26,870 nucleotides of DNA from Candidatus Hydrogenedentota bacterium (GCA_034408725.1 JAWXCN010000082.1:1-26870); one strand, 5' to 3'; positions 11,506 through 26,870 are shown, numbered from the stretch's first letter. Numbers and translations are program-made. Notes: generated by a model not told the origin, from the sequence alone.

Positions 11506-11598
11506 GGAAGTGCTCCAACGGGTGAAGTGTGGCTGCGCTGCCCATCGAGCGCAACGAATGACTATACCAAATGGAAACGGCAGCGCGTCAACGCATAA

Positions 11599-12381
11599 TC
11601 AATTGCGCTTGTGGAGGAAATTGGAGAGGCGCGGAAGGTCATCGGCGTTAATGAGGTCAACTCCGGCGTCGAGCAGCGCGGCCCAGAAATCTTCACGATG
11701 CGGGATGCCCCAGAAGCGGATGATCGCGCCGGAAGCGTGTGCTTTCTCGCAGGTGGCGCGCAGTTTATCTCGAACATCCGCGGGCATGTCCCCCGCCCTG
11801 TTCCAACGGAACGTGGCCGGCCAACTGTCACTGATGACGGGGATCAGCGCCGGGTCGAGCGGGGCGTCGAGATCGGGCAGTCTTCCATCGATGGCGGCAT
11901 AGCGTTTGGATTCGGTAATCAATATGTTTTTGGGCGCGTCGCCGGACAGCACTATGGTTACGGCGTTTTGCTTCACCCTGCCATCTTCGAAGACGGTGAG
12001 CATATCTGCGTATTGTTCAAGGAGCGGACGCAATGCCGCGTAGGTGGTTGGGCCGTCGTCCTTGATATCGATGAACAGCCAGATAGTGGGTCCATCTTTG
12101 TAAACGCGGCCGCCGTTGGCGCGCACGCGCTTTTGAAGTGGATCGAGGTACAGGCTTTGCAGCGTGCGGTCCGGTTTGATGTCTTCGCGATCGTGCGCGA
12201 CAAGCAATTGGCTATTGACAAGATAGACGTCGGCTTCGATGCTGCAAAAGCCGTGGTCGAGCGCATCAAGCAGTGGGCGCGCGTGTTCGTAATCATTGTG
12301 CGCGTGTGCATTGGGGAGCGGCGCGGTGTCCGCCGCGGCTGCGATGACAGAGCAGGCAAGCATTATGATTCGCGCGAGCAT
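11599..12381 (-). CDS. Secreted PI-PLC / glycerophosphodiester phosphodiesterase-like protein
   Basis: Start 12381 with RBS GGAGGG; motifs NAHAHNDYEH, SIEADV, LLVAHD, TLQSLYLDPL, IDIK, RFWG and GVDLINAD. Confidence 0.82.
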   Translation of the reverse strand: MLARIIMLACSVIAAAADTAPLPNAHAHNDYEHARPLLDALDHGFCSIEADVYLVNSQLLVAHDREDIKPDRTLQSLYLDPLQKRVRANGGRVYKDGPTIWLFIDIKDDGPTTYAALRPLLEQYADMLTVFEDGRVKQNAVTIVLSGDAPKNILITESKRYAAIDGRLPDLDAPLDPALIPVISDSWPATFRWNRAGDMPADVRDKLRATCEKAHASGAIIRFWGIPHREDFWAALLDAGVDLINADDLPRLSNFLHKRN

Positions 12382-12403
12382 TTTGCCCTCCGGGAGAATC
12401 CGT

Positions 12404-12466
12404 TTACGAATACGATTACGAATTACGAGCGCGAGCACGAAGGGGTAAGGTGTCGTGGCCGGGTCT
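12404..12466. repeat. Degenerate copy of family B repeat
   Basis: 12422-12466 aligns with the reverse complement of 8950-8993 at about 36/45 positions; preceded by TTACGAATACGATTACG hexamers. Confidence 0.7.
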
Positions 12467-12497: not shown

Positions 12498-12878
12498 CTA
12501 ACGGTTTACTGCGCGCCTCAACTCATCAATGAGATCGTCCGCGGCGCGATCCTTGGTCACGTACCCGGCGGCGCCGAGCGCTATCGCCTGCGTCTTGTAT
12601 TCGTCGGCGGGGTGAATGCTGAGCATGACGACGGGCAGGTTCGGGTTATCACGTTTGATTTCGCGCAGAACTTCGAGACCATTTTTGACGGGCATCGTGA
12701 TGTCCAGAATGACGAGATCGAATTCTTCCGTGCGGATTTTTTGCAACGCTTCGCCGCCATCCACGGCTTCCGCGGTCACTTCCATATCGTCGAATTGCGA
12801 CATCAACCGTACAATGCTTTTGCGCACCGCCTGGTGATCATCGGCCACCAGCAATCGTATGGGTCTCGTTCCGGTCAT
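12498..12878 (-). CDS. Single-domain response regulator (NarL-type receiver, no output domain)
   Basis: ADDH acidic pocket, phosphoacceptor in LDITMP, switch Ser in MLS, and GAAGYVTK; ends right after the receiver domain; RBS GGAG. Confidence 0.9.
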   Translation of the reverse strand: MTGTRPIRLLVADDHQAVRKSIVRLMSQFDDMEVTAEAVDGGEALQKIRTEEFDLVILDITMPVKNGLEVLREIKRDNPNLPVVMLSIHPADEYKTQAIALGAAGYVTKDRAADDLIDELRRAVNR

Positions 12879-12919
12879 CAAAATCTCCGGGTTTCTGAAT
12901 TCGAGTCCTGCTTCATAAT

Positions 12920-13570
12920 CTACTCGACCAGTCCCGCTTTCAAAGCGTACCGCATGAGGTCGGCGTTCGTCTTCATGCTCATCTTCTCGAGCACGCGCGT
13001 TCTATAGGTGCTCACGGTCTTTACGCTGAGGCACAACTTGTCGGCGATTTCGGTCGGGGTCATGCCGGAAGCCAGCAGGCGCAGCACTTCGAATTCGCGG
13101 TCTGACAAACTCTCGTGCGGCGCCCGTTCCGAGTTTGAATCCATCGCAAACGCCAATTGTTCGGCGAGCGATTCGGAAACGTAGCGTTTGCCGGAGCAGA
13201 CTTTTCGCACGGCAATGAGCAATTCATCGACCAGGCTTTCCTTGGTCACGTATCCGGCAGCGCCGGCCTGCAGCAATCGCCGCGCGTACAAGTCTTCCGG
13301 TTGCACGGTCAAGATTAACACGGGCAAGCCCGGCCGGACCGCATGCACCTGGCGCAACAAATCCATGCCGCTAATACCGGGCATGTGCAAATCCATTATC
13401 AGCGCGTCCCACTTTTCTTTTCGCAGTTTGTCGAGCAATTCAGGCCCGCTCGAGGCTTCCCCTTCGACGCGGATATCTTCGGCGCCTTGCAGCACCTGCA
13501 AGATTCCTTTGCGTACGACGACGTGGTCATCCGCTACGATGACCCGGCATTGCCGTGTCTGTAGACTCAC
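12920..13570 (-). CDS. NarL/FixJ (UvrY/GacA-like) DNA-binding response regulator
   Basis: GTG start at 13570 with RBS GGGGAGGT, next to the kinase stop; receiver domain plus LuxR-type HTH LSDREFEVL...EIA..L.LS.KTVSTYRTR.LEK. Confidence 0.93.
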   Translation of the reverse strand: MSLQTRQCRVIVADDHVVVRKGILQVLQGAEDIRVEGEASSGPELLDKLRKEKWDALIMDLHMPGISGMDLLRQVHAVRPGLPVLILTVQPEDLYARRLLQAGAAGYVTKESLVDELLIAVRKVCSGKRYVSESLAEQLAFAMDSNSERAPHESLSDREFEVLRLLASGMTPTEIADKLCLSVKTVSTYRTRVLEKMSMKTNADLMRYALKAGLVE

Positions 13571-13571
13571 A

Positions 13572-14732
13572 TCACACCTCCCCCGTAGGCAGGTTGACAC
13601 GCACGCGCGTGCCCTCACCCGGCACGGTTTGAATCGAAAACTCTCCGCCAAGCTGCGTGATACGCTCGCGCATGCCGGCAATTCCAAAAGTCTTTGCCGC
13701 GGCCGCGCCGGGGGTTGCTTGAATCCCGACGCCGTTGTCCGAGACCTCGACCTTGATTGTATCCGGTTTGACGGATAAGTGTACTTCTAATTCCGAGGCT
13801 TTTGCGTGCCGCGCCACATTCGTGAGGCATTCCTGGACAATGCGGAATATTGCGCGGGACTGCTCATGACCGGGCAACACACCATTAGTATACAGTGTCG
13901 TGCGGCAGCCAATTTCCGTCCGCTTCCCAAATTCAGCGACCAACCATTCTAGCGCCGGTTTCAGCCCCAACTCTTCCAGCATCGCGGGATGCAGTTCCGT
14001 CATGATGCGGCGGGTGGCCTGTACGGTCGCGTCCACCTGTTCGCTCATTGATGCAATAGCTTCCAGGGCCGCTGTATCCGGACTCGCGTGCTTCGAGATG
14101 TGCCGGCGCAGGTTGGCCAATTCAATCTTCAGGCTTGTCAGCGTTTGGCCCAGGTCATCGTGCAACTCGCGGCTGAGCCGCGCCCGCTCATCTTCGCGCA
14201 CGGTTTCCACATGCGCGGACAAGGTGCGCAACTCGTCTCGAGATTGCTGCAACTCGAGTTGCGCCCGCTCACGCTCTCCAATCTCTTTCACCAGGGCTGT
14301 CCGCTCGAGCCGTAACTGCGCCTTCGTCGTCACCGTCTCGAGGAGCGCGAAATAAAATGTTGTCAGCAACAACACGAGACCTGCCAACAATAAGGGGTTC
14401 TCGATTGTTGGACCCCATTGGTCAGCCCAAGCGTAAATCCCACCCTCCAACGGGGCGCTACGCAGAATCGCCACCACCTGCGAGAGCATTAAAAACGCCG
14501 TCGCAACGCTTACCATTCCTTGCAGAAGGTGGCGTCCTTTCAACTGGAATATCAAATAGAGTGCCGCGGAGATCAATAGCAGGAGGGCAATCAAACTCAG
14601 GAAATCGGCGTACAGCGGCCCCCATACGATGGAGTCGTTCACCCGTCTCGCCGCGATTTCGATTGCAAACGCGGCGCACATGGCGATGAGAATGGAAAAC
14701 CGCAAACGCGATAATTTGTCGTCCCGAATCAT
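13572..14732 (-). CDS. Membrane sensor histidine kinase (HisKA_3 + HATPase_c)
   Basis: About four hydrophobic helices, a coiled coil, H box ERARLSRELHDDLGQ, N box QECLTNVARHA, DNGVG, FGIAGMRER and GEGT. Confidence 0.93.
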   Translation of the reverse strand: MIRDDKLSRLRFSILIAMCAAFAIEIAARRVNDSIVWGPLYADFLSLIALLLLISAALYLIFQLKGRHLLQGMVSVATAFLMLSQVVAILRSAPLEGGIYAWADQWGPTIENPLLLAGLVLLLTTFYFALLETVTTKAQLRLERTALVKEIGERERAQLELQQSRDELRTLSAHVETVREDERARLSRELHDDLGQTLTSLKIELANLRRHISKHASPDTAALEAIASMSEQVDATVQATRRIMTELHPAMLEELGLKPALEWLVAEFGKRTEIGCRTTLYTNGVLPGHEQSRAIFRIVQECLTNVARHAKASELEVHLSVKPDTIKVEVSDNGVGIQATPGAAAAKTFGIAGMRERITQLGGEFSIQTVPGEGTRVRVNLPTGEV

Positions 14733-15092
14733 CCCTTACCGTGCCCTCCGCTGCCGCCCCGCCGCTCTGCAGAATATGAGAATTGTACGACAATTTACAA
14801 CCTTTTATTCTGAGCCCAAGTACCTTTTCATCTGTAAATGCTTACCGTGCATAGAATTTCGATTATTTCGCCGTTGACAGTGTTCTTCCTACAAGAACTT
14901 GCTCGTTCGTCCGATATTCCGGTCTGGACGTGATACGTATACTTCACCCCTCGACGGACAGAGTGCCGTAGATGAAAGGCTGGAATTCGATGAAGTATTC
15001 CCGGTCTTTGAAGTGGGTGGTGGGAAGGTGTCCAGCGCACTTGGTGACAAACGGTCACCGGGGACGCGGTATCTGAACTAGGAGAATTGATA

Positions 15093-15386
15093 ATGAGTGA
15101 TCAACAGCGGCAGTTTGAACAGCTTCTTCTTTCGCACGTCCCGCTGTGCTTTTCGGTAGCGTTACGCCTTACGAACAATCGCGAACACGCGCGAAGCGTT
15201 ACAAGGGACGTGCTCACGAGGGCTTGGGAGCTGTCCGACCAGCCGGATTTGCATCGGAGCATCAAACCTCGGCTACTCGCGATGTTGCGCAAACGCATCG
15301 AACAGCGCGCCCAAGAGCCCACGGCGTTACCGATGGCTTTGGCGCCAGCCTGCGTGACGCCCATGCAGCTTGCGGCAAAACGTTAG
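15093..15386 (+). CDS. Short ECF sigma-like protein with region 2 only
   Basis: RBS AGGAGA; FEQLLLSHVPLCFSVALRLTNNREHARSVTRDVLTRAW...IKPRLLAMLRK follows the ECF sigma-2 pattern; no sigma-4 HTH. Confidence 0.65.
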   Translation: MSDQQRQFEQLLLSHVPLCFSVALRLTNNREHARSVTRDVLTRAWELSDQPDLHRSIKPRLLAMLRKRIEQRAQEPTALPMALAPACVTPMQLAAKR

Positions 15387-15566
15387 CGAGCTTTCGAGCG
15401 GCGTCCCTGGTCCCGTTCAGCGCATATAACGCTGCCATTGGCGGATAGGAAACGGCGAACGTGGCGGTTATTGCCGATGTTTGAATCTCTCCGGTTCTTC
15501 GCTGGCGTGTTTTTCCGGCGTGGAACCGGTTCATTATTTCATGCGGGAAACCAATCAGGTTCATTG

Positions 15567-15600
15567 AAAAGGGCCGCCGGAACGCAAATCCCGGCAGCCC
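15567..15600 (-). terminator. Intrinsic terminator for the 40-aa gene
   Basis: Minus strand GGGCTGCCGG-loop-CCGGCGGCCC-TTTT, starting about 22 nt after the stop at 15623. Confidence 0.75.
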
Positions 15601-15622
15601 ACGAATTCGGAGGGAATGTGCC

Positions 15623-15745
15623 TCAGCTCATGCCTAACGCACCCAACAACCAATACAGGACGAGAAATACAACGATTGTTCCCAAGACGCCGCCGCCCCA
15701 CATCCAGGCGCCAGCGCCGGCGGCTCCAGTTCTGAGTAAACCCAT
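15623..15745 (-). CDS. Unannotated 40-aa Gly-rich membrane peptide
   Basis: MGLLRTGAAGAGAWMWGGGVLGTIVVFLVLYWLLGALGMS; RBS AGGAG (15754-15758) and its own terminator; too short to appear in the ORF track. Confidence 0.75.
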   Translation of the reverse strand: MGLLRTGAAGAGAWMWGGGVLGTIVVFLVLYWLLGALGMS

Positions 15746-15974
15746 GTCAAAAACTCCTCTCGTTAACGTGCTGGAATATATCCACACTGGTTCCACAGTA
15801 AAGAACCCCTATTACCTGCCGTTCATTCCCATTATTTCCGGTAATCTTCGGCTTTTGGGTGTAGACGGGGGAACAAAGTTTGCCGCGCCCGGAAGGGCGA
15901 TGGCGGCCGGGCTTGTTAACCATTACAACAGGCCCAGACCAAGGAACTCGGGACAGTCTGAAAAGGAGAACTAC

Positions 15975-16124
15975 ATGTCTAGTTGGAAACATCTCGTAAT
16001 GGCCGCGCTCATTGCCGTATTGAGCATCGGCTCCTTCAGTTGCAACACCGTGAAAGGTGCGGGTCGCGACATTCAGGAAGGTGGTGAAGTCATCGAAGAC
16101 GCCGCAGGTAGCGCGCAGCGGTAA
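15975..16124 (+). CDS. Entericidin EcnA/B family lipoprotein
   Basis: RBS AAGGAG; signal peptide followed by CNTVKGAGRDIQEGG, the entericidin signature. Confidence 0.92.
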   Translation: MSSWKHLVMAALIAVLSIGSFSCNTVKGAGRDIQEGGEVIEDAAGSAQR

Positions 16125-16145
16125 ATTCACCCTCGAAGAAATAAC

Positions 16146-16180
16146 GGCGGCGGCCCGAAGGGTCCCTTCGGGCCGCCGCC
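16146..16180. terminator. GC-rich palindrome between convergent genes, probable bidirectional terminator
   Basis: Perfect 17-bp inverted repeat GGCGGCGGCCCGAAGGG-T-CCCTTCGGGCCGCCGCC; poly-U tails are weak. Confidence 0.65.
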
Positions 16181-16224
16181 ATCTATGCAATCGCTTCCTT
16201 TGGGAGGCGCTAAGACCTGAGGTC

Positions 16225-18156
16225 TTACACTACCGAGGCGATTACCGGCCTCTGATTTGATTGGACAACGACCGGCAACCAGCTCTCGAGTTGGCGTTGC
16301 GTTTCCGCAATCGTACACGCGATGTTGTCCGCGCCCGCTTCGCGCAATTGTTCCTGGATGGCTTCCGGATTTCCCCGCGCTCCCCAGCGGCCAACGAGAA
16401 TTTTAACATCGGGAGACCGCGCCCGCAGCCGTTTGCAAAGGTGGCGCGTATGCGCCAGTCCGCCGGGCGGCAACGCCGCGATGCAAACCAATTGGGCGCT
16501 GCCCTCGGAAACCCGCTCAACCACTTCGGAGACGAGCGTTTCTCCGCTAATGGTCTCGACTTCCCACTGCCGTTCGTCGAGCGCCATACCGAATAATTCC
16601 ACCGCCAACCGGTCCTCTTCATCGTGGGCAGGACATGCGAGCACCTGGATGCGTGGCAACCGGGGAGATTCGCTCTCGATCGGCGCGTCGGCGGACCGTT
16701 TCCGGTCGCCAAAATCTTCGAGCATTTCCCGAATTGACTGGAGCACAAAAGTTTCGTCGTCTTTCGTCAGCTCGTTGGCGGCGCGATCCCGTTTGAGATA
16801 GGTCAATGCAGGCACGACAAGACTGTCGAAACAAGTCCCCGGCGACGCTTTTTCCTCGGCCAGGAGCAATCCTTCGGCTTCATCATGATCGTGCGCGAGC
16901 AGACGCTGATAGAACGTCACGTGGTTGGCGAGCGCCGGCTCATCGCTCATCATCACGACGAGTGATTCCAGTCGCGAGACATGCCGGCCCAGCACGGTCA
17001 GACACACGGTGAGCGGCGCGGAAAGCACGAGGCCAATCGGCCCCCACAGCAGCGTCCAGAACGCGGCCGAGACTATCATCGCGACTTCGGAAACTCCAAT
17101 GCTGCGTCCGTAGAGCAGTGGCTCCATAATGTTGTTGGATACGAGTTCCAGAACAATCAGCAGACCTATTACGGTGAGGGGTTGCCACCATCCTGTGAAC
17201 TGCGCGAAACTCATCACAACCGGAAGTATCGCGGCAATCGTTGCACCGATGTATGGCACATAGCGCAGGAGCGCCGCCAGAAATCCCCACAACGGCGCAT
17301 ACGCGACGCCAATGGCGTACAGGCCGATACCCCAGGCCAAGCCATAGGTCGAGTTGATGATGAACTGCATGAACAGAAAGCGCGAGATGCGTTCGCCCGC
17401 TTCATCGACGGCTTTGGTAGTAGCGCTCATCCGCCCGTCGCCCACAAGCCAGATGAAGCGGTTGCGTAATGCTTCGCGCCGCAGAAGCGTAAAAATCACC
17501 AGGACAAGCGCGAGCCCGAAACTGACTACGCTTCCCAAAACTTCTCCGGCGATATACGGCGCGCGCTCCATCCAGGTAGGACTTTCCAGTCTGGCGACGA
17601 CAGGGTCAGTATCGGTGCCAGAAGCAGTAGCCTCAGTAGCAGCAGTAGTCTCGGTAGCAGCAGTGGTCTTAGTCGCAATGGTAGTCTCAGTATCAGCAGT
17701 GGTCTCAGTCGCGATGGTGGTTTCAGTAACAATGGTTTCAATGGGTTCCGAATTCAATTCCTTCGAGATTTCCCCAAACATCCATTCCAACCGGTCCATG
17801 GTGGCGCCTTCGCTCATCATGCGTATATCTCGAATACGGTTCCGGATATTTTGGGTGTATCCAGGAAGTTCGCCGGCCAAGCTCGAAATCTGGCCCACTG
17901 CAATCCAGAGGACTGCCCCGAAAGCAATCGAAACGCAACTCACCACAAGGACGACCGATACTGCTCGCCCGACGCGCAGGCCCTCAACGCGTTTGACAAG
18001 GGGCGTCAGCAAGAACGTGAGGAACATTGCCAGCGCAATGGGGATAAAAATGGCCTGCGCAAAATAGAGGATCGCCACGATTGCCAAGAAGACGACCGTG
18101 TTACTCAGCACGATTACCGCCCGTTGCCAGGGAGCCGCCGTCAACGATCTACCCAC
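16225..18156 (-). CDS. AI-2E family transporter with C-terminal B12-binding-like Rossmann domain
   Basis: GTG start with RBS GGAGGGGG; AI-2E motifs IPIALA.FL.FLL.P, LRYVPYIG, NNIMEP.LYG and W..LWGPIGLVLS.PLT; C-terminal FYQRLLA and ICI.ALPPGG-type segment. Confidence 0.9.
   Translation of the reverse strand: MGRSLTAAPWQRAVIVLSNTVVFLAIVAILYFAQAIFIPIALAMFLTFLLTPLVKRVEGLRVGRAVSVVLVVSCVSIAFGAVLWIAVGQISSLAGELPGYTQNIRNRIRDIRMMSEGATMDRLEWMFGEISKELNSEPIETIVTETTIATETTADTETTIATKTTAATETTAATEATASGTDTDPVVARLESPTWMERAPYIAGEVLGSVVSFGLALVLVIFTLLRREALRNRFIWLVGDGRMSATTKAVDEAGERISRFLFMQFIINSTYGLAWGIGLYAIGVAYAPLWGFLAALLRYVPYIGATIAAILPVVMSFAQFTGWWQPLTVIGLLIVLELVSNNIMEPLLYGRSIGVSEVAMIVSAAFWTLLWGPIGLVLSAPLTVCLTVLGRHVSRLESLVVMMSDEPALANHVTFYQRLLAHDHDEAEGLLLAEEKASPGTCFDSLVVPALTYLKRDRAANELTKDDETFVLQSIREMLEDFGDRKRSADAPIESESPRLPRIQVLACPAHDEEDRLAVELFGMALDERQWEVETISGETLVSEVVERVSEGSAQLVCIAALPPGGLAHTRHLCKRLRARSPDVKILVGRWGARGNPEAIQEQLREAGADNIACTIAETQRQLESWLPVVVQSNQRPVIASVV
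17617..17724 (-). repeat. In-frame 18-bp tandem repeat (6 units) inside the AI-2E gene
   Basis: Units encode ETTIAT, ETTADT, ETTIAT, KTTAAT, ETTAAT and EATASG. Confidence 0.9.
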
Positions 18157-18188
18157 AAGACCCCCTCCGTGCTTTTATGCCACGACAA

Positions 18189-18977
18189 TCAGGCCTGCTC
18201 CGCGCCCGGATCGGGCGCGTATGCGGGTGGTTCCGCCGGTGCGGTCGTACTCGGGCGCCGCAACGTCCAACTGTCGGGAAGTATGCGTCCGCGAATCGGT
18301 TTTCCTCCCAATTTCAGGGTGAATTGATTGATTGCATCTTCCAGCGGCTGGTTGATCGCGGCGGGCGCGGATTTCATCGCAAGGTCCCGGACGATACCGA
18401 ACAACGTCCCAAGTGCGAGCCCTTTCAGCAACTGAATCTCGTCGTGGAACATTTCGCCCATACGGATTCCCATTTTTTCTCTCGCGTCTTTCACCGTCTC
18501 GACGTCGAGCTGGGTTTCAAGGGGAGCGGGGGCGGGCGTTTTTTCTTTAATGGGAACAGCTTTCTCGACAATGCGAACCGGTCCAATTTCTGGATCGGCA
18601 AGCACCGACATGAACCCGTTATACCTATCGGTCAACGCACCGCCGTTAGCGGGGTGAGAACCATTGCCATTTGGACGATCCCGCAAATACGCCGTTCCCA
18701 CGTACCCCACCGCCGCCGCGCCAGCGATCATGGCCCAAGGGTGCCGGACAACATGCCGCCGTATATTTACTGCGTTGGACATGTTTTCCTTTGCGTCATG
18801 ATACGTGCGTTGAACGGAGTCCACAGTATCGGTTACCGTGTCGATCACGTCATTCACGCGTTCCTTCGCATCACTAAAAGTGCCTTCCACCTGCTGCTCC
18901 AGTTGATCCAGTTTGTCTGTCAGCGCCGCCCGGCGTTCCATCATGCGTTGACGGATTTCCTCTGAGCCGTTATCCAT
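18189..18977 (-). CDS. DUF3618/DUF883-like coiled-coil protein with membrane helix
   Basis: N-terminus EEIRQRMMERRAALTDKLDQLE; VRHPWAMIAGAAAVGYV anchor motif; lies directly after the holin-like gene. Confidence 0.75.
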   Translation of the reverse strand: MDNGSEEIRQRMMERRAALTDKLDQLEQQVEGTFSDAKERVNDVIDTVTDTVDSVQRTYHDAKENMSNAVNIRRHVVRHPWAMIAGAAAVGYVGTAYLRDRPNGNGSHPANGGALTDRYNGFMSVLADPEIGPVRIVEKAVPIKEKTPAPAPLETQLDVETVKDAREKMGIRMGEMFHDEIQLLKGLALGTLFGIVRDLAMKSAPAAINQPLEDAINQFTLKLGGKPIRGRILPDSWTLRRPSTTAPAEPPAYAPDPGAEQA

Positions 18978-19363
18978 TCGACGTTCTCCTGCATCGCCCG
19001 TTTCGTTTCCACGAACGGGGCGCCAACACTTCGTATACTTCTACTTCCCAACCACGCGACGACACCTCCGGTAAGAGCGATTGGCGCTCCTACGACCCCG
19101 AAGCAGGCCCAAAGCGGGAGCGAGGGATACAGCGCCACCAGCACGTAGACCAGCATGAAAGACAAAAGCGCCACGCCCAGCAGGACGAGCAGACCTCCGC
19201 ATGCCATCAAAATCGTTGCCGACTTAGCCGCGCTCAACCGCTCCTCGACCTCGAGCCGCAGGAGCGTCAATTGCTGACGGGCGAGTTCCTGTGCATCATC
19301 GAAAATGCCAGACACCAAGTGGGTCACAGGCGCTTTCGCGTGCACGTTGGCTTCGCGCTCCAT
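18941..19363 (-). CDS. YqjE-like two-TM membrane protein (phage holin family 3_6 type)
   Basis: LVSGIFDDAQELARQQLTLLRLEV followed by two TM helices; overlaps the next gene by 37 nt. Confidence 0.82.
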   Translation of the reverse strand: MEREANVHAKAPVTHLVSGIFDDAQELARQQLTLLRLEVEERLSAAKSATILMACGGLLVLLGVALLSFMLVYVLVALYPSLPLWACFGVVGAPIALTGGVVAWLGSRSIRSVGAPFVETKRAMQENVEWITAQRKSVNA

Positions 19364-19369
19364 CCCGCC

Positions 19370-19800
19370 CTAGCTCCTTCGTGATGTGGCTTGGGCGATG
19401 AGGAACCCCACGCCAATGGCGGCAAGCAATGCCGGAATTGGGTTGCGGCGGACCACGTTGGTCAAATCGTCGGCGATACCGCTGAGCCCTTCACTTTGAA
19501 GGTAGTCGCCCGTGCGTTCGAGTGAGTGCGCCACCGCAGAGGTTGCGGTGCCGGCCATACCGCTTTGGGGTGATTTATCGCGCACGGACTCGCCCATTGA
19601 TTTCAGGGTGCCGCCCAGCGACGATGTCGCGTCTTCGGCTTTGTGGCCGACATACGCCGCCGCATCCTCGCCTTGCGCATGACTGCAGACGCCGCATCTT
19701 TGGCGCGATGGCCAGCAGAAACTGCCTTGTCGCCGATGGCGTCGGCCGCATCCGTGGCCATGCCGATGCTATTTTCCACTTCGGGATAGGTCGTATTCAT
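19370..19800 (-). pseudogene. ElaB/YqjD (DUF883)-like tail-anchored protein with a 1-nt frameshift
   Basis: ATG 19800 (MNTTYPE...) joins the 19370-19597 frame if one base is restored near 19670, giving ...MRKAEDAAAYVGHKAEDATSSLGG...VRRNPIPALLAAIGVGFLIA (143 aa). Confidence 0.75.
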
Positions 19801-19871
19801 GACTGTCCTTTCACAACTCTGATTTCGAGTTATTGGTCGCTTTGGCACGGCGTGCGCCGTGTTTCCTGCCG

Positions 19872-20405
19872 TTATATTGCTTCAATGGAAATCTTGAATT
19901 CGTTTGTGGCTTCCGCGCCGACGGCGGGCGAACCGTTAACTTTGATCATAAAATCGCCGACTGCTGCGTCCGCTGACGCGGTGATCATGACGTCGGCCTC
20001 GGTTTCACCGTTCTTGATCACGGGTGACGCTGGTTCGACGGTCACACCGGGAGGTACGTTCGCAAATTCGAGCGTAACATCCTGGCTCATATTGTCACCG
20101 CGATTGATTTCGATTTGGGTGGCTTTCGATTCGCCTTGCTTCAGGTTTGTGGCCAAGTTCGGAACGTCCAAGGTAAACGTGTTTTCGCTGGGTCCCAACA
20201 CTTTCGTGCTGGTATCCTGTAACAAAGACGTGTCGGTTTCGGTGCGGACACCGTCACGAACTGGTTCGGTGGTCATTGGTTCCGTCGTCACTGGCGTCGT
20301 TCGTTCTACGGTCCTGTCTACGCCCGGACCGCCTGGCGTGCCACTATCGCACCCGCCAATTAGTACAATGGACGCCGCTGCTAACGTTGCTGCTAAGCCT
20401 TTCAT
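19872..20405 (-). CDS. Hypothetical lipoprotein with Thr-rich linker and beta-rich C-terminal domain
   Basis: ATG 20405 with RBS AAAGGT; signal MKGLAATLAAASIVLIGG-C; GTPGGPG. Confidence 0.8.
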   Translation of the reverse strand: MKGLAATLAAASIVLIGGCDSGTPGGPGVDRTVERTTPVTTEPMTTEPVRDGVRTETDTSLLQDTSTKVLGPSENTFTLDVPNLATNLKQGESKATQIEINRGDNMSQDVTLEFANVPPGVTVEPASPVIKNGETEADVMITASADAAVGDFMIKVNGSPAVGAEATNEFKISIEAI

Positions 20406-20438
20406 AATCGTCACCTTTCAAGTACGACCGCGTTCCGG

Positions 20439-20642
20439 TTAGGAACGGAGCCCGTTAATGAAATCGGTGAGCTCCTGCTCGACCCGATCTTTCGCATACC
20501 CATATCTTTCCTGGAGCTTTCCGGCGAGCTGATCGCGTTTTCCGTTAACCTCGCTTACATCATCGTCGGTCAATTTGCCCCAACGCTCTTTCACATCACC
20601 TTTTAACTGCTTCCAACTTCCCTCGACCTTGTCCCACGACAT
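20439..20642 (-). CDS. csbD: CsbD/YjbJ family general stress protein
   Basis: RBS AAGGAGG; WDKVEGSWKQLKGDVKERWGKLTDDD...G.RDQL.GKLQERYG. Confidence 0.93.
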   Translation of the reverse strand: MSWDKVEGSWKQLKGDVKERWGKLTDDDVSEVNGKRDQLAGKLQERYGYAKDRVEQELTDFINGLRS

Positions 20643-20680
20643 TGATGATCCTCCTTTTTTTGATGATGCCGATGCGGGTG

Positions 20681-20845
20681 CTAGAATCCGCGCGGAAGAT
20701 AGCCCAAGAGCATCATCACCACGACGATTACCAGCACAACTCCCAGGACGCCACTCGGTCCATAGCCCCAACCCCGACTGTACGGCCACGCCGGGAGGCC
20801 GCCGGCGAGCAGCACGATTAGAATAATTAGCAAAATCAGGCCCAT
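20681..20845 (-). CDS. DUF3309 family small membrane protein (54 aa)
   Basis: MGLILLIILIVLLAGGLPAWPYSRGWGYGPSGVLGVVLVIVVVMMLLGYLPRGF; LP.WP.SR.WGY.PSG signature; RBS AAGGAGA; not in the ORF track. Confidence 0.9.
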   Translation of the reverse strand: MGLILLIILIVLLAGGLPAWPYSRGWGYGPSGVLGVVLVIVVVMMLLGYLPRGF

Positions 20846-21362
20846 CGGAGTCTCCTTCATTTTTTCTTCCGCTTGTTGACCGTGCGTTGCTTGATCAACT
20901 ACCTATGGTTGTACCCCGATTCCGCAAACAGGAACATAAGACAAGGTTTCAAAATGATGTAGGACGATTGGAAAAGCTGAAAGAACGGTATTCGGTGGAG
21001 CGGAAATGTAAAATAGGGTGAATCGTGGCGGGCGCGCCACGAGTTGATGGATGCTTCAATCGATCAACAGAGAACTTTGGTTATCGCGATACATCTTTTC
21101 GAATGGAACCGCTCTGTCAAAGCGAGACGCGCGAAACGGTGAATCCGTCACAACCCTTATGGACACCAATGGATAGAGCGCTCAACGGGATACTTCTGGG
21201 ATTACAACATCCGTCCGCAAGGTTATCTATGTAAAACTAAGTCGAATTGGGGGCAGGGCAATCAGCGGATATGCCAAATAAAATCGCTGGCAAAGTCCAG
21301 GATATTGTCCATTTTATCCTTATTTCGAGGTGCAGCAGACAGCAAGGGACTTTTTCGCATTT

Positions 21363-24300
21363 ATGCCACCCACTCTTCCGCCGCTGACAAAAACATTCGG
21401 ACGGCTCTCGAACTGGTATCAAACCGTGTATCACACAGTTACCGGGAACGGGATCGGTTTTTCGGCGGATGAACAGCCGTTGCGCGCCGAACTGTATAGC
21501 GTGCACCAACTCGAGTTGCACGCCAAGGCGGTGGCGGCAACGCACGAACTCGCAGCGCGCCGCACCCCGAACCGGCTGATAGCGCGTCTTGAAAAGAACG
21601 AACGGGTTCTAACCCGGACCTATGAATCCCTCGCCATCGCGGTCGAAAAAAAATACCAGATTACCCCGGCGGCGGAATGGCTTCTCGACAGTTTTTACGC
21701 CATTGAAGATCAAATCCGCGCCGCGCGCCGGCATTTGCCGCGATCGTTCAGCCAGTCTTTGCCACAGCTTTCGAGCGGCCCTGCGGCCGGTATGCCCCGC
21801 GTGTATGGCATCGCGACTGAACTCATTTCTCACGCCGATGGCGCCATCGATAACGCCAGCCTTGGCGCTTTCATTGCCGCGTACCAGACCATCACGCCGT
21901 TGACCCTGGGCGAACTTTGGGCGATCCCGATCATGTTACGGCTTGCCCTTATCGAGAACCTTCGGCGGGTCTCGGTGCGCGTTGCCGCAAGCCTGCGCGA
22001 TCGGGATGAAGCGACCGAGTGGGCCCTCCGGATGGTCACCATCGTCGAGAAGAACCCGACCGATCTTGTCCTTGTGCTTGCGGACATGGCGCGCGCGGAT
22101 CCGCCGCTGACGAGCACGTTCGTCGCGGAACTGACACGCCACCTGCACGGGCAGAGTCCTCATTTCGCGTTTGCGCAAGGCTGGCTCGAACACCGCCTTT
22201 CCGAACGTGGCGTGACGATCAGCCAACTGGTCCAGATCGAAAGCCAAACCCAGGCGGCGGACCAGGTGTCAATTGGCAACAGCATTACGAGCCTTCGTTT
22301 GCTCGGTTCGACGGATTGGCGGGATTTTGTCGAAAGCCAAAGCGTTGTCGAAAGTGTTTTACGCCATGACCCCGGCGGTGTGTACGCGGACATGGGGTTT
22401 GTCACGCGCGACCGCTATCGTCACGTGGTTGAACAAATTGCAAAGTACGCCGGACTTCCCGAAGCGGACGTTGCGCTTCACGCAGTCCGTCTTGCCGAGG
22501 CCGCGTTCGTCCGCGAACCGGGGAACCGCTGTGCCCACGTGGGCTATTACCTGATTGACAAGGGCCGCGACGAACTGGAGCGGCGCGCCCGGATGCGCGC
22601 GCCGGTCTCGATGAAGATCAATCGGGCTTTTCAACGGCATCCTCTTTTGTATTACGTGTCGGGAATCGCAGCGCTCGCGCTTTGCGTGATTTTGGCGTTT
22701 TTCCAATGGACGGGCGCGGGTGAAGCGCCGGTATGGATGCTGGCCGCCATCGCGGCGCCCGCACTCATGTGCGCCACGCAATTTGCGATTAACGTCGTTA
22801 ACTGGTTGGTCACCATCGTCGTTGCGCCAAAGCCGCCGCCCCGAATGGATTTCCGCGCGGCGATTCCGCGTGAACACCGCACCATGGTGGTCATCCCGAC
22901 CCTGATCACGTCTAAGCAGGGGATTCACGATCTCCTGGATCGGCTGGAAGTTCACTATGTCGGGAATAGCGACAAGCACCTCCACTTCGCGCTACTTACG
23001 GATTTGAAAGACGCATCACAGGAAATCCTGCCGGAGGACGAAGCGCTGGTGCGCCGAGCGCGCGAAGGCATCGAGGCGCTTAACGAAAAGTACGCGGACG
23101 ATCGGCGGGACATTTTTTTTCTGTTTCATCGCCCGCGCAAGTGGAGCGCCGCGGACAAGGTCTGGATGGGATACGAACGGAAACGAGGCAAGCTAAGGGA
23201 ATTTACGGGACTTCTTCGCGGGGGATCGTTCGACAGTTTTTCAGAAGTCGTGGGCGACGTGCAGGTGCTTCCGGAAATCCAATACGTCATTACGCTTGAT
23301 ACGGACACGTTGCTTCCGCGCGACGCCGCTCGTGAACTCACCGGCGCAATGGCCCATCCCTTGAACCGCCCTGTGATCGACGCGCGGCTGCGGCGCGTGG
23401 TCGAGGGCTATGGGATTTTACAGCCGCGTGTGGCCATAAGCCTGCCGACGGCATCCAAGTCGTGGTTTGTCCGCCTGTTTGCGATTGATTCCGGCCTGGA
23501 CCCGTATACGCGTGTCGTCTCCGACGTTTACCAGGATGTTTTCGGCGAGGGCACATTCATTGGAAAGGGCATCTACGACGTCGACGCATTTCATCAGACC
23601 TGCGATCATTTTCCAGAGAACGCAATCCTCAGTCATGATCTGCTTGAAAGCGCGTATGCGCGTTCCGCGCTAATGAGCGACGTGGAACTTTACGAAGACT
23701 ATCCTTCGCGGTATGCAGTGGATGCAAGCCGCCGGCATCGGTGGATTCGTGGGGATTGGCAAATCGCGCGTTGGATTATGCCGCGCGTACACGGGCCGGA
23801 AGGGCGGTCCGTGAAGAACCCAATATCGGCGCTGTCCTGGTGGAAAATCGCCGACAACCTGCGGCGTAGTCTGGTTCCCCCGGCGATGATTGCGTTGCTC
23901 ACATTGGGTTGGCTGTTTTCCTGGCCCTTGCTTGCCGCGTACGCGACCGGTCTCGTCGTTGCCGTATTTGTGGTTGCCCCCCTGCTTTCCGCGATAGCGG
24001 AATTGGCGCGCAAGCCGGTTGATCTCGACTGGTTTACTCACTTTCGGGCGTATCAACCCGACATGGCGCACCGTGCGGCCCAAGTTTTGTTCAATATCAT
24101 CTTCCTGCCCTACGAAGCGTTTCTCAGCCTTGACGCGGTAACGCGCACCTTGGCGCGCGTGTGGTGGACACGCCGCCGTATGTTGGAATGGACGACGTCG
24201 TCGGACGCCGAACGGTTCGCCCGAACGTCGCTTGCTGGCCATATGCTCACCATGTGGGCGGGACCCGCCGCGGCGGCATTACTGGGAATTGCGACGGCCA

Positions 24301-26810
24301 TGGTCCACCCTGGCTATCTCATCGCGGGGGCGCCGTTACTTCTATTGTGGCTGTTCTCCCCCGTCATCGCGTGGTGGGTGAGTCGAACGCTGCACGTCTA
24401 CAAGCCAGACCTTGACACGGGCCAGCTTGTGTTCCTTCGCAAACTCGCCCGCAAGACCTGGAGGTATTTCGAGGTATTCGTTACACCGGAAGAAAATTGG
24501 CTGCCGCCAGACAATTACCAGGAGCAACCGAAGGCCGCCATCGCGTCGCGGACCAGCCCCACGAATATCGGCGTTGCATTGCTTGCGAACCTCACGGCAT
24601 CCGACTTTGGGTATTGCACGACCGGAGAACTCCTGCTGCGCACGCAAAATACGCTCGCCACGATGGGCCGTCTCGAAAAATACCGCGGCCATTTCTACAA
24701 CTGGTATGACACCCAGACGCTTCGTCCGCTCCCGCCCCACTATGTTTCGACGGTGGACAGCGGAAACCTTGCCATGCACCTGTTGATCCTGCGATGCGGG
24801 CTGCTCGAGTTTATTGATGCGCGCGTGTTTCCGGCCAGTGTCTTTACGGGCATCCAGGATACGGCGAGCGTGCTATACGACGTGATTCACCATGCCATCG
24901 AAACGCAGGAGCCTGGAAAGGATTCGTTGCAGCTTCGCGAGTGCCAGCATCTCACGGAACAAATCGTCGCGCTGGCGACAGACGGTTCACGTTCACTCAG
25001 CGGTTCGGCGCTCCTGCTCAATCGCATCGCCGATACGGTGAACGCGCTTGAGAAGATCGATTGCGGGTCGCCCGAAGGCCGGTGGTGGACGGCCAAGCTC
25101 GTCAAAACCATCCACGGGTTCCAGGAGGAGTTAGCGCAGACCGCGCCCTGGGTGCTGCTCGAGTCCGCACCGGAAAAAATGTGGAGTGCCGCAAGCGGCG
25201 GACAGAGTGCGCAGCTTGAAGAATTGCGCGACGCGCTTGCACGGCTCGAGAGGATACCTACGTTGCGCCAGGTGGCCGAATCGCGTCATTCCCTGCTGCC
25301 GCGGATTGACGCCGCACTTGTTGCCGTCCACGCGGCTGGCGCGGTTAGCATGGAATGGCTCACGGCGTTGCGCCGTACCATATCGGATGCGTCGCGCACC
25401 GCCATCGAACGCATTCGCAATATCGAAGAAGCTGCCAGCCTGTGCCTCGATCATGCGAGCATGGACTTCGGGTTTCTGTACGACAAGACCCGCGATCTCA
25501 TGGCGATTGGCTACAACGTCTCCGACCACCGTTTGGACACGGGCTTCTACGATCTGTTGGCCTCGGAGGCGCGAACGGCCAGTTACTTCGCGATCGCCCA
25601 GGGGCAATTGGACCAGGAACATTGGTTTGCAATGCGGCGCATGCTGACAACGTCTACGGGCGCTCCGGCGTTGCTGAGCTGGAACGGTTCGATGTTCGAG
25701 TATCTGATGCCGTTGCTTGTGATGCCCACGTATGAGAATACACTGCTGGATCGGACGTGCAAGGCAATCGTGTTCCGCCAGATTGCATACGGTAAACAGC
25801 GCGGCATACCCTGGGGCGTTTCTGAATCCGGATACAACACGCTCGACGTTCACCTCAACTATCAGTACCGCGGCTTCGGCGTGCCTGGGCTCGGTTTGAA
25901 ACGCGGGCTTGTCGACGATCTCGTTGTCGCGCCGTATGCCAGCGCCCTTGCCTTGATGGTTGCGCCCGAAGAAGCGTGCAAAAACCTGGAACGCCTCGCC
26001 AGCGAAGGCCGCGCCGGCGCCTACGGTTTATACGAGGCAATCGACTACACGGCGACCCGGCTGCCGCGCGGGGCCAGCAGTGTGACCGTCCGATCGTTCA
26101 TGGCCCACCATCAGGGGATGAGCCTGTTGGCGTTCAGCCATGTTCTGTTGAACAGACCGATGCAACGCCGTTTCGCGGCCGATCCGGCGTTGCGCGCGAA
26201 CGAATTACTGTTGCAGGAGCGGGTACCGCGCACGACCGCGCCAATCTATCCGCACGCGGTAGAAGCCAGCACTTCAATTGCCGCCTTGTCTGGAGCGGAA
26301 GATTCCACGCGGGTGTTTTCCGATCCGGGAGGGTCCGCGCCGGAAGTACACTTGCTGTCCAATGGACGCTATCACGTCATGGTCAGCAGCGCGGGGGGCG
26401 GCTACAGCCGCTGGGGCGATTTTGCCGTCACCCGCTGGCACGAGGATGCGACGCGCGACTGCTGGGGCACATTCTGCTATTTGCGCGATACAGATTCCGG
26501 ACGCTACTGGTCCGTCGCACACCAACCGGCGCTTAAGTCCACGAAACCCTATGAAGCGATCTTTGCCCAGGGAAAAGCCGAATTTCGCAGAAGAGACGAC
26601 GAGATTGAAACGCATACCGAGATCAGTGTTTCGCCCGAGGACGATATCGAGCTTCGGCGGATTACCCTAACCAATCGCTCGGACAGGCCGCGTAACATCG
26701 AGTTGACCTCTTACGCCGAAGTTGTGCTCGCACCCGTCGGTCAGGACCTTGCGCATCCCGCCCTCAGCAATCTGTTCTTGCAAACTGAACTCATTGCGGC
26801 GCGTGCATAA
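21363..26810 (+). CDS. ndvB: Cyclic beta-1,2-glucan synthase (Cgs/NdvB/ChvB, GT84), C-terminally truncated
   Basis: Motifs AAEWLLD, GELWAIPIMLR, WMGYERKRGK, ITLDTDT, SHDLLE, RRHRWIRGDWQ, LPPDN.Q, RTSPTNIG, YDLLASEAR, PWGVSES and HLLSNGRY. Ends after about 1815 aa, early in the GH94 region. Start uncertain (21330 or 21363). Confidence 0.92.
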   Translation: MPPTLPPLTKTFGRLSNWYQTVYHTVTGNGIGFSADEQPLRAELYSVHQLELHAKAVAATHELAARRTPNRLIARLEKNERVLTRTYESLAIAVEKKYQITPAAEWLLDSFYAIEDQIRAARRHLPRSFSQSLPQLSSGPAAGMPRVYGIATELISHADGAIDNASLGAFIAAYQTITPLTLGELWAIPIMLRLALIENLRRVSVRVAASLRDRDEATEWALRMVTIVEKNPTDLVLVLADMARADPPLTSTFVAELTRHLHGQSPHFAFAQGWLEHRLSERGVTISQLVQIESQTQAADQVSIGNSITSLRLLGSTDWRDFVESQSVVESVLRHDPGGVYADMGFVTRDRYRHVVEQIAKYAGLPEADVALHAVRLAEAAFVREPGNRCAHVGYYLIDKGRDELERRARMRAPVSMKINRAFQRHPLLYYVSGIAALALCVILAFFQWTGAGEAPVWMLAAIAAPALMCATQFAINVVNWLVTIVVAPKPPPRMDFRAAIPREHRTMVVIPTLITSKQGIHDLLDRLEVHYVGNSDKHLHFALLTDLKDASQEILPEDEALVRRAREGIEALNEKYADDRRDIFFLFHRPRKWSAADKVWMGYERKRGKLREFTGLLRGGSFDSFSEVVGDVQVLPEIQYVITLDTDTLLPRDAARELTGAMAHPLNRPVIDARLRRVVEGYGILQPRVAISLPTASKSWFVRLFAIDSGLDPYTRVVSDVYQDVFGEGTFIGKGIYDVDAFHQTCDHFPENAILSHDLLESAYARSALMSDVELYEDYPSRYAVDASRRHRWIRGDWQIARWIMPRVHGPEGRSVKNPISALSWWKIADNLRRSLVPPAMIALLTLGWLFSWPLLAAYATGLVVAVFVVAPLLSAIAELARKPVDLDWFTHFRAYQPDMAHRAAQVLFNIIFLPYEAFLSLDAVTRTLARVWWTRRRMLEWTTSSDAERFARTSLAGHMLTMWAGPAAAALLGIATAMVHPGYLIAGAPLLLLWLFSPVIAWWVSRTLHVYKPDLDTGQLVFLRKLARKTWRYFEVFVTPEENWLPPDNYQEQPKAAIASRTSPTNIGVALLANLTASDFGYCTTGELLLRTQNTLATMGRLEKYRGHFYNWYDTQTLRPLPPHYVSTVDSGNLAMHLLILRCGLLEFIDARVFPASVFTGIQDTASVLYDVIHHAIETQEPGKDSLQLRECQHLTEQIVALATDGSRSLSGSALLLNRIADTVNALEKIDCGSPEGRWWTAKLVKTIHGFQEELAQTAPWVLLESAPEKMWSAASGGQSAQLEELRDALARLERIPTLRQVAESRHSLLPRIDAALVAVHAAGAVSMEWLTALRRTISDASRTAIERIRNIEEAASLCLDHASMDFGFLYDKTRDLMAIGYNVSDHRLDTGFYDLLASEARTASYFAIAQGQLDQEHWFAMRRMLTTSTGAPALLSWNGSMFEYLMPLLVMPTYENTLLDRTCKAIVFRQIAYGKQRGIPWGVSESGYNTLDVHLNYQYRGFGVPGLGLKRGLVDDLVVAPYASALALMVAPEEACKNLERLASEGRAGAYGLYEAIDYTATRLPRGASSVTVRSFMAHHQGMSLLAFSHVLLNRPMQRRFAADPALRANELLLQERVPRTTAPIYPHAVEASTSIAALSGAEDSTRVFSDPGGSAPEVHLLSNGRYHVMVSSAGGGYSRWGDFAVTRWHEDATRDCWGTFCYLRDTDSGRYWSVAHQPALKSTKPYEAIFAQGKAEFRRRDDEIETHTEISVSPEDDIELRRITLTNRSDRPRNIELTSYAEVVLAPVGQDLAHPALSNLFLQTELIAARA

Positions 26811-26870
26811 AATCGCCTGGCGCGCCGCACTGAGGTCAGTTTGTACAACCAGATTGCTGAAGGCGCGATG

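Follow-up and report, generated by a model that had tools for sequence, protein, structure and literature searches.

The question raised by this locus is whether a group of small stress-associated proteins is controlled by the regulators encoded among them. The locus lies on a contig of Candidatus Hydrogenedentota bacterium (GCA_034408725.1, JAWXCN010000082.1), which was analyzed over its entire length of 26,870 nucleotides (26.9 kb), called the window in the following, and which belongs to a 92%-complete genome of 280 contigs. In the original prediction, a histidine kinase, two receiver proteins and a protein with only a sigma region 2 domain (half-sigma) formed one dedicated circuit for the neighboring effector genes. 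General stress responses are known in detail for few lineages, with RpoS, SigB and EcfG/PhyR as the described types. We confirm that the predicted gene set is really present in the window (Table 1). The island and the regulators embedded in it are real and correspond to no paradigm described so far, and none of the SigB, RpoS and EcfG systems is encoded in the locus, as had been claimed. The reading as a single circuit is partly supported: judged by gene neighborhoods, the four regulators of the window appear to be two modules of separate history, which meet only in this genome. We give an even chance to the explanation that the window represents a copy of a stress-protection island of patchy distribution, with the wiring and the half-sigma role proposed below. 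Genomes are labeled G (G000 is that of the window), loci around half-sigma genes L and representatives of the protein library P.

The window proteins were mapped by tblastn onto the stretches around half-sigma genes. In eight other genomes the DUF3309, CsbD, lipoprotein, holin-X/YqjE-like, entericidin, AI-2E and Cgs genes recur near a half-sigma gene. Because the clustering recurs across genera, with the half-sigma as a recurrent member, it goes beyond chance, which bears out the claim that the effectors are clustered with regulators of their own. The sister species G002 carries almost the full set in rearranged order: Cgs, entericidin and the 40-amino acid (aa) peptide stand opposite the kinase (51% identity) and the regulator (71%), after which follow DUF3309, CsbD, the lipoprotein, the YqjD-like protein, holin-X, the 262-aa protein and AI-2E, and the half-sigma gene is located 7 kb beyond this cluster. 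Subsets of the effectors are found 1-25 kb from a half-sigma gene in G014, G018, G027, G106, G111, G128 and G132, which represent seven genera and two families. CsbD is encoded in 20 of the 54 genomes of the family, namely in 9 of the 12 with a half-sigma and in 11 of the 42 without, counts in which the relatives are not independent. Its distance to the half-sigma gene is 4.5-21 kb in the 7 genomes with both located on one contig, and in G109, G118 and G129 the two were found on different short contigs. From genome to genome, the genes of the island are heavily shuffled. Transposase genes within related islands (IS110-family and DDE; L014 913-2088, L070 121-1503) are consistent with this shuffling and with the patchy distribution. 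A two-helix membrane protein of roughly 78-97 aa (MxAYxIVA...GQF(T/S)(F/Y)TKE...), to which no family was assigned, also recurs in the island and adjoins entericidin in G002 (C11, stitched 15440-15720, minus strand) and the half-sigma in G019 (L014 5422-5715); it was not found in the window.

In most of the other genera, the island includes a different two-component system. A conserved OmpR-type regulator (59-89% identity between genera) is encoded near the half-sigma in 9 of 27 loci, in 8 of these 9 beside a PAS-HisKA kinase, and a nucleoside triphosphate (NTP) transferase gene, with an N-terminal part resembling mannose-1-phosphate guanylyltransferase, lies directly upstream of the half-sigma on the same strand in 8 of the 27. 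Orthologues of the regulator with at least 58% identity were detected in 22 of 135 genomes of the phylum, among them 11 of the 19 with a half-sigma (12 with the truncated copy of G129). The DUF3309 upstream regions contain CTTT(A/G)CC units phased by 11 bp; each promoter has two to four of these units, and a TGGCAnAAT-like element comes after them. A loose form of this pattern gave 86 matches in 579 kb of island loci versus a mean of 5.9 in 20 shuffles, which were mononucleotide shuffles and thus a weak control; the matches group into 58 clusters, some of which are not true arrays. DUF3309 stands behind arrays at least 9 times, and CsbD, the 40-aa peptide, SPFH, YflT, OmpA-family, BON, KaiC-like ATPase, radical-SAM and lone receiver genes follow arrays as well; one array precedes a transposase, and part of the listed downstream open reading frames (ORFs) is probably spurious. 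Arrays are located ahead of the half-sigma itself in G014 and L039, ahead of the NTP-transferase/half-sigma operon in G106 and, counted by eye, upstream in the same direction at at least seven half-sigma loci.

Whole genomes were also scanned with a strict two-unit pattern, for which the reversed pattern served as control. Ten regulator-positive genomes gave 68 matches versus 31 in the control, and five regulator-negative genomes gave 7 versus 9 without any clustering. The strict matches lie beside the regulator gene in G106 (7 of 7), G132 (5 of 5), G116 (7 of 8), G018 (4 of 5), G111 (6 of 10), G071 (4 of 8) and G014 (4 of 11), and they are dispersed in G039 and G019. From this co-occurrence we infer that the CTTTRCC repeats are the operator of the OmpR-type regulator and that the island is largely its regulon. 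Binding of the repeats by this regulator would turn the island of the relatives into a self-contained regulon, and the half-sigma would be one of the induced genes.

In at least seven loci (G106, L026 about 12810-12920 and stitched 22140-22300; G132, G128, G111, G014, L039, L064), the array promoter and the start codon of DUF3309 are separated by a conserved 5' leader with a hairpin (CCGTGGCGTTCACGG, then a G-rich stretch and another stem); it could be a cis-regulatory RNA and is absent from the window. Directly behind an array in the island of G111, a two-domain KaiC-like ATPase is encoded (L071 349-2094), a hint that the regulon of this genome may have an input or output of a clock-like or KaiC type. 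In G018 (L015 12405-14363) groES-groEL are located directly upstream of the PAS kinase and OmpR regulator genes in the same direction, and a repeat array is present in the divergent spacer beyond groES.

The genome of the window lacks both the regulator and the arrays of this direct-repeat regulon. Orthologues of the OmpR-type regulator (38% identity for the best match), of its kinase, of the NTP transferase and of the radical-SAM gene were all missing from G000. The strict pattern had 0 matches, and the loose pattern 103 versus 52-64 in shuffles, none of them adjoining another, which leaves no repeat array in the whole genome. The regulator is found in 0 of the 5 genomes of the genus g1, to which the window belongs. 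We assume that this genus may have lost the OmpR-type regulator together with its sites, and that the HisKA_3 kinase/NarL-type regulator/receiver operon would be the likeliest local controller of the effectors there.

The operon agrees in coordinates and Pfam domains with the prediction of a kinase/regulator/receiver-only operon divergent from a sigma-2-only ORF, and a kinase with HisKA_3 and HATPase_c encoded in one operon with a regulator of receiver (REC) and GerE domains is the hallmark of a HisKA_3/NarL two-component system. Full-length relatives of the kinase are present in 8 of the 135 genomes, G000 included: kinase, regulator and receiver together in G000, G003, G001, G020, G013 and G032, kinase and regulator without the receiver in G002 and G116. 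Regulator orthologues are 56-84% identical in seven genomes, and receiver orthologues follow the regulator in G003 (73% identity), G020 (60%), G001 (59%), G032 (49%) and G013 (45%). When contigs were scanned with the kinase, a single close orthologue was obtained, located on a contig of 3.2 kb, besides three distantly related kinases of Burkholderiaceae. The operon abuts effectors in 3 of 7 assessable genomes (G000, G002 and G020, with the G003 contig being too short to judge the surroundings); in G020 CsbD and the lipoprotein are located 1.4 kb upstream of it. Upstream of the kinase, G000, G001, G002 and G020 have a GTAGGA(A/C) site, which in G001 is a perfect 7-2-7 inverted repeat, and a further copy is present in the DUF3309-Cgs spacer of the window.

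The second module is the half-sigma, which profile match and predicted structure identify as a sigma-2 domain of the extracytoplasmic function (ECF) type without sigma-4. Pfam has just a weak Sigma70_r2 match for it (E=0.009), and a profile of 27 half-sigma sequences matches the SigR sigma-2 fragment (1h3l, E=4.7e-10) as well as SigH and the Bartonella RpoE that was co-crystallized with NepR (5uxx). In the AlphaFold2 (AF2) model (pLDDT 84), four helices form a sigma-2 domain, and the last 23 residues (75-97) are disordered. The top Foldseek matches of the model are ECF sigma-2 domains, all with E-values above 0.001, and it fits 1h3l with a root mean square deviation of 1.6 A over 68 columns. 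No Sigma70_r4 match was obtained in Pfam or NCBIfam, and neither a PhyR_sigma2 match at E<=0.01 nor a receiver was detected. Profile match, fold and missing sigma-4 are all in line with the prediction of a sigma-2-only ORF.

A search over 1.84 billion representatives yielded 1295 relatives at E<=1e-3 and 133 at E<=1e-10. The half-sigma is not a fragment, because most of its best library relatives are similarly short (132 of the best 150 with at most 150 aa). High-scoring short half-sigmas occur in 19 of the 135 phylum genomes, often in several copies each, and almost all phylum genomes also encode one complete SigH-like ECF sigma, the nearest full-length relative of the half-sigmas, which in G000 lies on contig C51. 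The family may extend beyond the 19 genomes counted, as indicated by a weaker half-sigma-like match in G039 (55 bits, 156-aa open frame). This match (C1, 2784197-2784415) is located 1.2 kb downstream of a strict repeat match (2783011). Phrase searches of the literature gave no paper describing these proteins, and half-sigmas form an undescribed protein family. The census of ECF sigma factors demanded both the sigma-2 and the sigma-4 domain, and sigma-2-only proteins were therefore left out by design (PMC7826278); in the passages covered, a review of non-canonical ECF sigma factors does not mention sigma-2-only proteins (PMC8999054).

Six residues are invariant in all 27 half-sigmas (W45, K58, L61, L62, L65, R66). 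In ECF sigma factors the conserved residues of regions 2.2-2.4 include the D..QE signature, which is used for core binding, the AWL motif and an N. With the hallmark positions taken from a hidden Markov model alignment to SigR, these residues turned out to be replaced in the half-sigmas: the W of AWL and the N are kept in 0 of 27, and the D..QE signature is degenerate, with the Q in 1 and an acidic D/E in 15 of 27. The loss of core-binding and -10 hallmark residues speaks against a split sigma, in which the half-sigma would supply region 2 and a partner, perhaps the LuxR-type domain of the neighboring regulator, a sigma-4-like helix-turn-helix (HTH) to direct RNA polymerase to the island promoters. 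The half-sigma does fall into the size class of RsoA, and the HTH of the regulator, whose gene is the divergent neighbor, has a weak Sigma70_r4_2 match (E=5.8e-5). However, no small sigma-4-only ORF was seen next to the 27 half-sigmas, the 31 sigma-4 matches in G000 include no obvious candidate, the neighboring regulator of the relatives is OmpR-type with a winged helix, and the promoters behind the arrays resemble, by eye, housekeeping extended -10 promoters, so that we regard a split sigma as very unlikely. ECF-like GGAAC..CGT promoters were searched by eye only and gave no consistent pattern.

A role in partner switching is suggested by gene fusions. An RsbW-like HATPase_c_2 domain is fused to a half-sigma in P0024 and P0083, both among the best 150 relatives, and in locus L035. 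Five other proteins (P0067, P0080, P0081, P0086, P0124) combine the half-sigma with a shared N-terminal domain, which Pfam barely sees (STAS_2 E=9e-4, in one protein only). In the model of P0081, which is poor overall (pLDDT 57) and good in its two domains only, this domain has the order beta-beta-alpha-beta-alpha-beta, and STAS anti-sigma antagonists account for all of its best PDB matches (TM1442, RsfB, RsbS, SpoIIAA, RsbV). Furthermore, the half-sigma of L041 adjoins a PAS-GAF-PP2C-RsbW-like protein and a STAS protein. G000 has two RsbW-like/STAS pairs without an adjoining sigma gene and also two half-sigmas, a numerical match that is only suggestive.

From the RsbW-like and STAS fusions we infer partner switching or sigma mimicry by the half-sigmas. 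The half-sigma would be no sigma factor on its own and would most likely act by protein binding in such a step; it may, for instance, occupy an RsbW-type or another anti-sigma factor and thereby add a second regulatory tier. The fusions are also in line with a different role, in which the sigma-2 domain would bind to the beta-prime clamp helices of RNA polymerase and, in stress, compete with complete sigmas or tune them. The RsbW/STAS fusions would gate this docking. The fold is that of a complete sigma-2 domain, the fusions put the half-sigma at the place of the sigma in the partner-switching triad, and in the relatives it belongs to a putatively stress-induced gene set. The degenerate core-binding signature argues against docking, which we consider unlikely. 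Returning to the binding of an anti-sigma factor, it seems conceivable, if doubtful, that sigma-2-only proteins represent a new regulatory class: sigma mimics which serve as third partner of RsbW/STAS switches, are induced by a two-component system under stress, capture or release an anti-sigma and, together with the repeat-marked island, form the core of the general stress response of the phylum.

The second half-sigma of G000 is encoded on contig C53 (L018 9680-10306) in a 208-aa ORF with an unrelated C-terminal extension of about 100 aa. It is preceded by genes for a Ser/Thr kinase-WD40 protein and a TPR protein and followed by that of an FAD/Rieske oxidoreductase; the half-sigma of G002 is the orthologue of this copy, judged by the shared neighbors, with the FAD/Rieske oxidoreductase common to both. 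In G132 and G128 the half-sigmas (L028 8185-8775, L032 10005-10595) have a C-terminal CxxC...CxxC zinc-ribbon-like segment, and their tails have a weak match to DUF2007, a PII-like "signal transducing" domain.

Several observations weigh against the wiring and the half-sigma role proposed here. RsbW-type anti-sigmas are known for group-3 sigmas and not for ECF sigmas. The contexts of half-sigma genes are heterogeneous, with cytochromes, WD40 proteins and glycosyltransferases as other neighbors. The OmpR-type regulator is also present in 11 of the 116 genomes without a half-sigma, e.g., G116 and G071, which makes the half-sigma optional and not needed for the regulon, and its binding to the repeats is deduced from co-occurrence together with the habit of its family. 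The kinase operon has no effectors within 10 kb in G001, G013 and G032 (in two places), nor have kinase and regulator in G116, so that the expected co-conservation with the effectors holds in three genomes and fails in these four. A half-sigma stands beside the operon in G000 only, and the prediction that kinase, two receivers and half-sigma form one dedicated circuit could not be upheld. Motif discovery upstream of the window's effectors, which had been suggested as a check, gave no motif common to their promoters, and shared 9-mers in the intergenic regions of G000, G002 and L019 revealed nothing convincing. GTAGGA(A/C) is not enriched, with 7 copies in the window versus about 13 expected, nor is GTAGG[AG][AC] in any locus; because the overall counts are not above chance, this site is a tentative NarL-type operator.

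The places of the kinase operon without effectors and the lack of a shared promoter motif would fit effectors that are neighbors of the regulators without any circuit, with an unlinked regulator or complete sigma co-regulating them and the operon and the half-sigma having landed there by rearrangement. About 30 sigma-4-bearing ORFs in G000 could serve in this way, and the shuffling of the island with transposases in two related loci fits as well. On the other hand, CsbD-type genes adjoin the kinase and the regulator in three genomes (G000, G002 and G020), which come from two genera, and the island of the relatives carries its own regulator and candidate sites, from which local control appears to be a habit of the island. 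A neighborhood without a circuit is therefore, in our opinion, an improbable explanation, although one to be taken seriously.

The half-sigma of the window could be drifting, because it forms the longest terminal branch of the family tree (1.68 versus a median of 0.51), another point against the proposed role, and because its usual neighbors are lost from G000. The window copy cannot be placed in this tree, in which 15 of 25 inner branches are open, and it deviates at several near-invariant positions, e.g., S for D/E and V for L. Branch length, deviations and lost neighbors might suggest a decaying relic that was left after the genus lost the OmpR-type regulon and that has no present function. 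Nevertheless, the frame is intact (open from 15087 or 15093), AGGAGA 7 nt ahead of the ATG is a good ribosome-binding site, all nine family-invariant residues are retained, the sequence is identical in contigs of several runs, and G000 keeps the second copy, which has its orthologue in G002. We consider a functionless relic highly improbable.

The proposed island regulon, with a half-sigma acting by protein binding, shares single features with several known systems. As in the PhyR-NepR-EcfG pathway of Alphaproteobacteria, a sigma-like domain that is not a sigma factor would be part of a stress pathway fed by a two-component system, ECF hallmark residues are degenerate in the mimic as they are in PhyR, and CsbD-type small proteins are among the outputs of that pathway. 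PhyR, however, consists of sigma-2-like and sigma-4-like parts fused to a receiver, whereas sigma-2 stands alone here; there is no NepR-like or EcfG-like gene in the locus, and control in the relatives appears to be transcriptional. RsoA is likewise a small protein with a sigma region-2-like segment only, but rsoA is co-operonic with sigO, which provides region 4, and none of the 27 half-sigmas has such a partner beside it. The fusion of half-sigma relatives to HATPase_c_2 or STAS recalls RsbV-RsbW-SigB and SpoIIAA-SpoIIAB-SigF, and CsbD and YflT are SigB-regulon proteins in Bacillus. Here the difference is that no group-3 sigma lies beside the modules of G000 and that the sigma-like partner would be a bare sigma-2. 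The families of the Escherichia coli RpoS regulon (YjbJ/CsbD, EcnB, ElaB/YqjD, YqjE, OsmY) are the same as those clustered here or behind the arrays of the relatives; in E. coli these genes are dispersed and rely on a complete sigma that is not linked to them, unlike the clustering with local regulators found here.

With respect to PhoB/OmpR regulons, the units phased by 11 bp replace the -35 region ahead of a -10-like element in the same way, and the OmpR-family regulator is encoded among its own candidate targets. The CTTTRCC unit and the gene set are new, the targets are concentrated in one island and not spread genome-wide, and the CTTTRCC regulon is absent from the genome of the window. 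The kinase operon has the HisKA_3/NarL architecture of NarXL, UhpBA and LiaSR, but in NCBIfam the regulator matched only UvrY/NarL-family models, every one under the equivalog cut-off, and in six genomes the operon has a lone receiver gene as a conserved third member.

The organism is an uncultured mat bacterium, and the locus with its relatives offers a testable model of a stress response for a phylum without a cultured member. Its parts are a compact effector and regulator island, a candidate operator in the form of the phased CTTTRCC repeats and a putative natural regulator swap in one genus. What orphan partner-switching modules control has been a long-standing question, as many bacteria have such modules without a known sigma output, and the RsbW-like and STAS fusions suggest a possible output for them. 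The components are small and either soluble or easily cloned, which makes binding and reporter tests feasible in a laboratory host.

Table 1. Features of the locus in window coordinates with the basis of each assignment.
Feature	Position	Strand	Basis
Lone receiver (REC-only), last gene of the operon	12498..12881	-	Pfam Response_reg E=2.5e-28
NarL/LuxR-type response regulator	12920..13570	-	Pfam Response_reg and GerE/LuxR HTH
Membrane HisKA_3 histidine kinase, first gene of the operon	13572..14732	-	Pfam HisKA_3 and HATPase_c
Divergent control region	14733..15092	.	palindrome GTTCTTcctacAAGAAC (14881-14897) with TGTAGGAAG half-site
Sigma-2-only protein (half-sigma), 97 aa	15093..15386	+	profile, AF2 model, Foldseek
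40-aa membrane peptide	15623..15745	-	ORF; conserved in relatives
Entericidin-like lipoprotein, 49 aa	15975..16124	+	Pfam Entericidin EcnA/B (PF08085) E=9e-7
AI-2E family transporter with C-terminal B12-binding-like domain	16225..18156	-	Pfam AI-2E_transport E=8e-45
262-aa protein (yqjK-like in the original prediction)	18189..18977	-	no family
Holin-X/YqjE-like membrane protein	18941..19363	-	Pfam Phage_holin_3_6 (PF07332) E=3.6e-20
Membrane-anchored YqjD/ElaB-like protein, about 140 aa	19370..19848	-	frame analysis versus intact G002 gene
180-aa lipoprotein (signal peptide and lipobox)	19872..20414	-	sequence; absent from the originally predicted gene list
CsbD-family protein, 67 aa	20439..20642	-	Pfam CsbD (PF05532) E=1e-21
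DUF3309 membrane protein	20681..20860	-	Pfam DUF3309 (PF11752) E=3.8e-22
Cgs-like protein (cyclic beta-1,2-glucan synthase-like), N-terminal 1826 aa	21330..26810	+	Pfam domains

Among the predicted effectors, CsbD (76.9 bits versus a gathering score of 40), DUF3309 (78.6 versus 22.3) and entericidin (29.1 versus 23.3, with signal peptide and Cys as typical of the family) score above the Pfam gathering thresholds, and the AI-2E gene, the 40-aa peptide and the Cgs-like gene are present as described. The equivalog model for entericidin B (36 bits, cut-off 94) and the CsbD model PRK10428 (93.7 bits, cut-off 113) of NCBIfam were not reached. The predicted yqjDEK-like triad holds in its YqjE part, with 72.6 bits versus a gathering score of 28.4 for PF07332, and not for the other two labels, which no family model supports. 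Neither the window fragments of the YqjD-like gene nor its intact orthologue in G002 has a Pfam or NCBIfam match, DUF883 included, and the name reflects the architecture of the protein, in which the C-terminal membrane anchor is the sole resemblance. The 262-aa protein gave just weak YtxH and apolipoprotein matches in the family scans and has syntenic orthologues in G002 and G111, and orthologues of the lipoprotein adjoin CsbD in G002, G014, G020, G111 and G128. The 40-aa peptide, without a family in Pfam or NCBIfam, is kept in G002 (74% identity over 27 aa), L043, L060 and L029; a terminator-like hairpin lies downstream of its gene (15600-15571), and a strong hairpin (16143-16183) is common to entericidin and the convergent AI-2E gene. 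The B12-binding match of the AI-2E transporter (E=7e-7) is under the curated cut-off, and the domain is C-terminal and cytoplasmic. This transporter also has a threonine-rich repetitive insert (TETT/ATETT units) at residues about 140-175. Starts are uncertain for the regulator, with a GTG at 13570 in a frame open to 13687, and the DUF3309 protein probably starts at the second ATG (20845). The Cgs-like protein comprises a glucoamylase domain, a weak GT2 domain and a GH94 supersandwich domain, which is cut at profile position 159 of 251; Cgs proteins usually combine a glycosyltransferase at the N-terminus with a GH94 phosphorylase-like domain at the C-terminus in a single chain of about 2800 aa. 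Two ORFs of 41 and 45 aa between DUF3309 and Cgs have no Pfam match, and the window contains no Rfam family at gathering score and no tRNA. Consensus promoters (4 versus 4.6 in shuffles) and terminators (11 versus 10.5) are not in excess. A look-up of RNA runs gave none that contains the segment 12400-21400. Beyond the receiver gene (9139-12438) the window encodes a penicillin amidase (788 aa) and a secreted GDPD-like protein, which are not conserved beside the kinase operon in the relatives.

The stop in Cgs and the frameshift in the YqjD-like gene are assembly artefacts. An extra T after 19672 in contigs of 4 of 4 runs restores the frame of the YqjD-like gene, which is therefore intact in the population and not a pseudogene. 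A genuinely truncated Cgs was likewise rejected: contigs of runs X1 and X3 align only to 26803, five bases ahead of the apparent stop, and the homologue of G014 reads past that point. A search of G000 that used 308 residues from the homologue of G014 as query did not recover the remainder of Cgs. At 26791-26870 one loose contig end reads as the reverse complement of the following 13 window bases together with the stem ahead of them; this suggests that the contig end forms an inverted loop or folds back on itself. A C>T difference is present at 26763 in three runs. The order kinase, half-sigma and entericidin was also found on a 9.5-kb contig from another run, and run X1, the possible source of the window, has a single contig that covers the segment 14600-17818.

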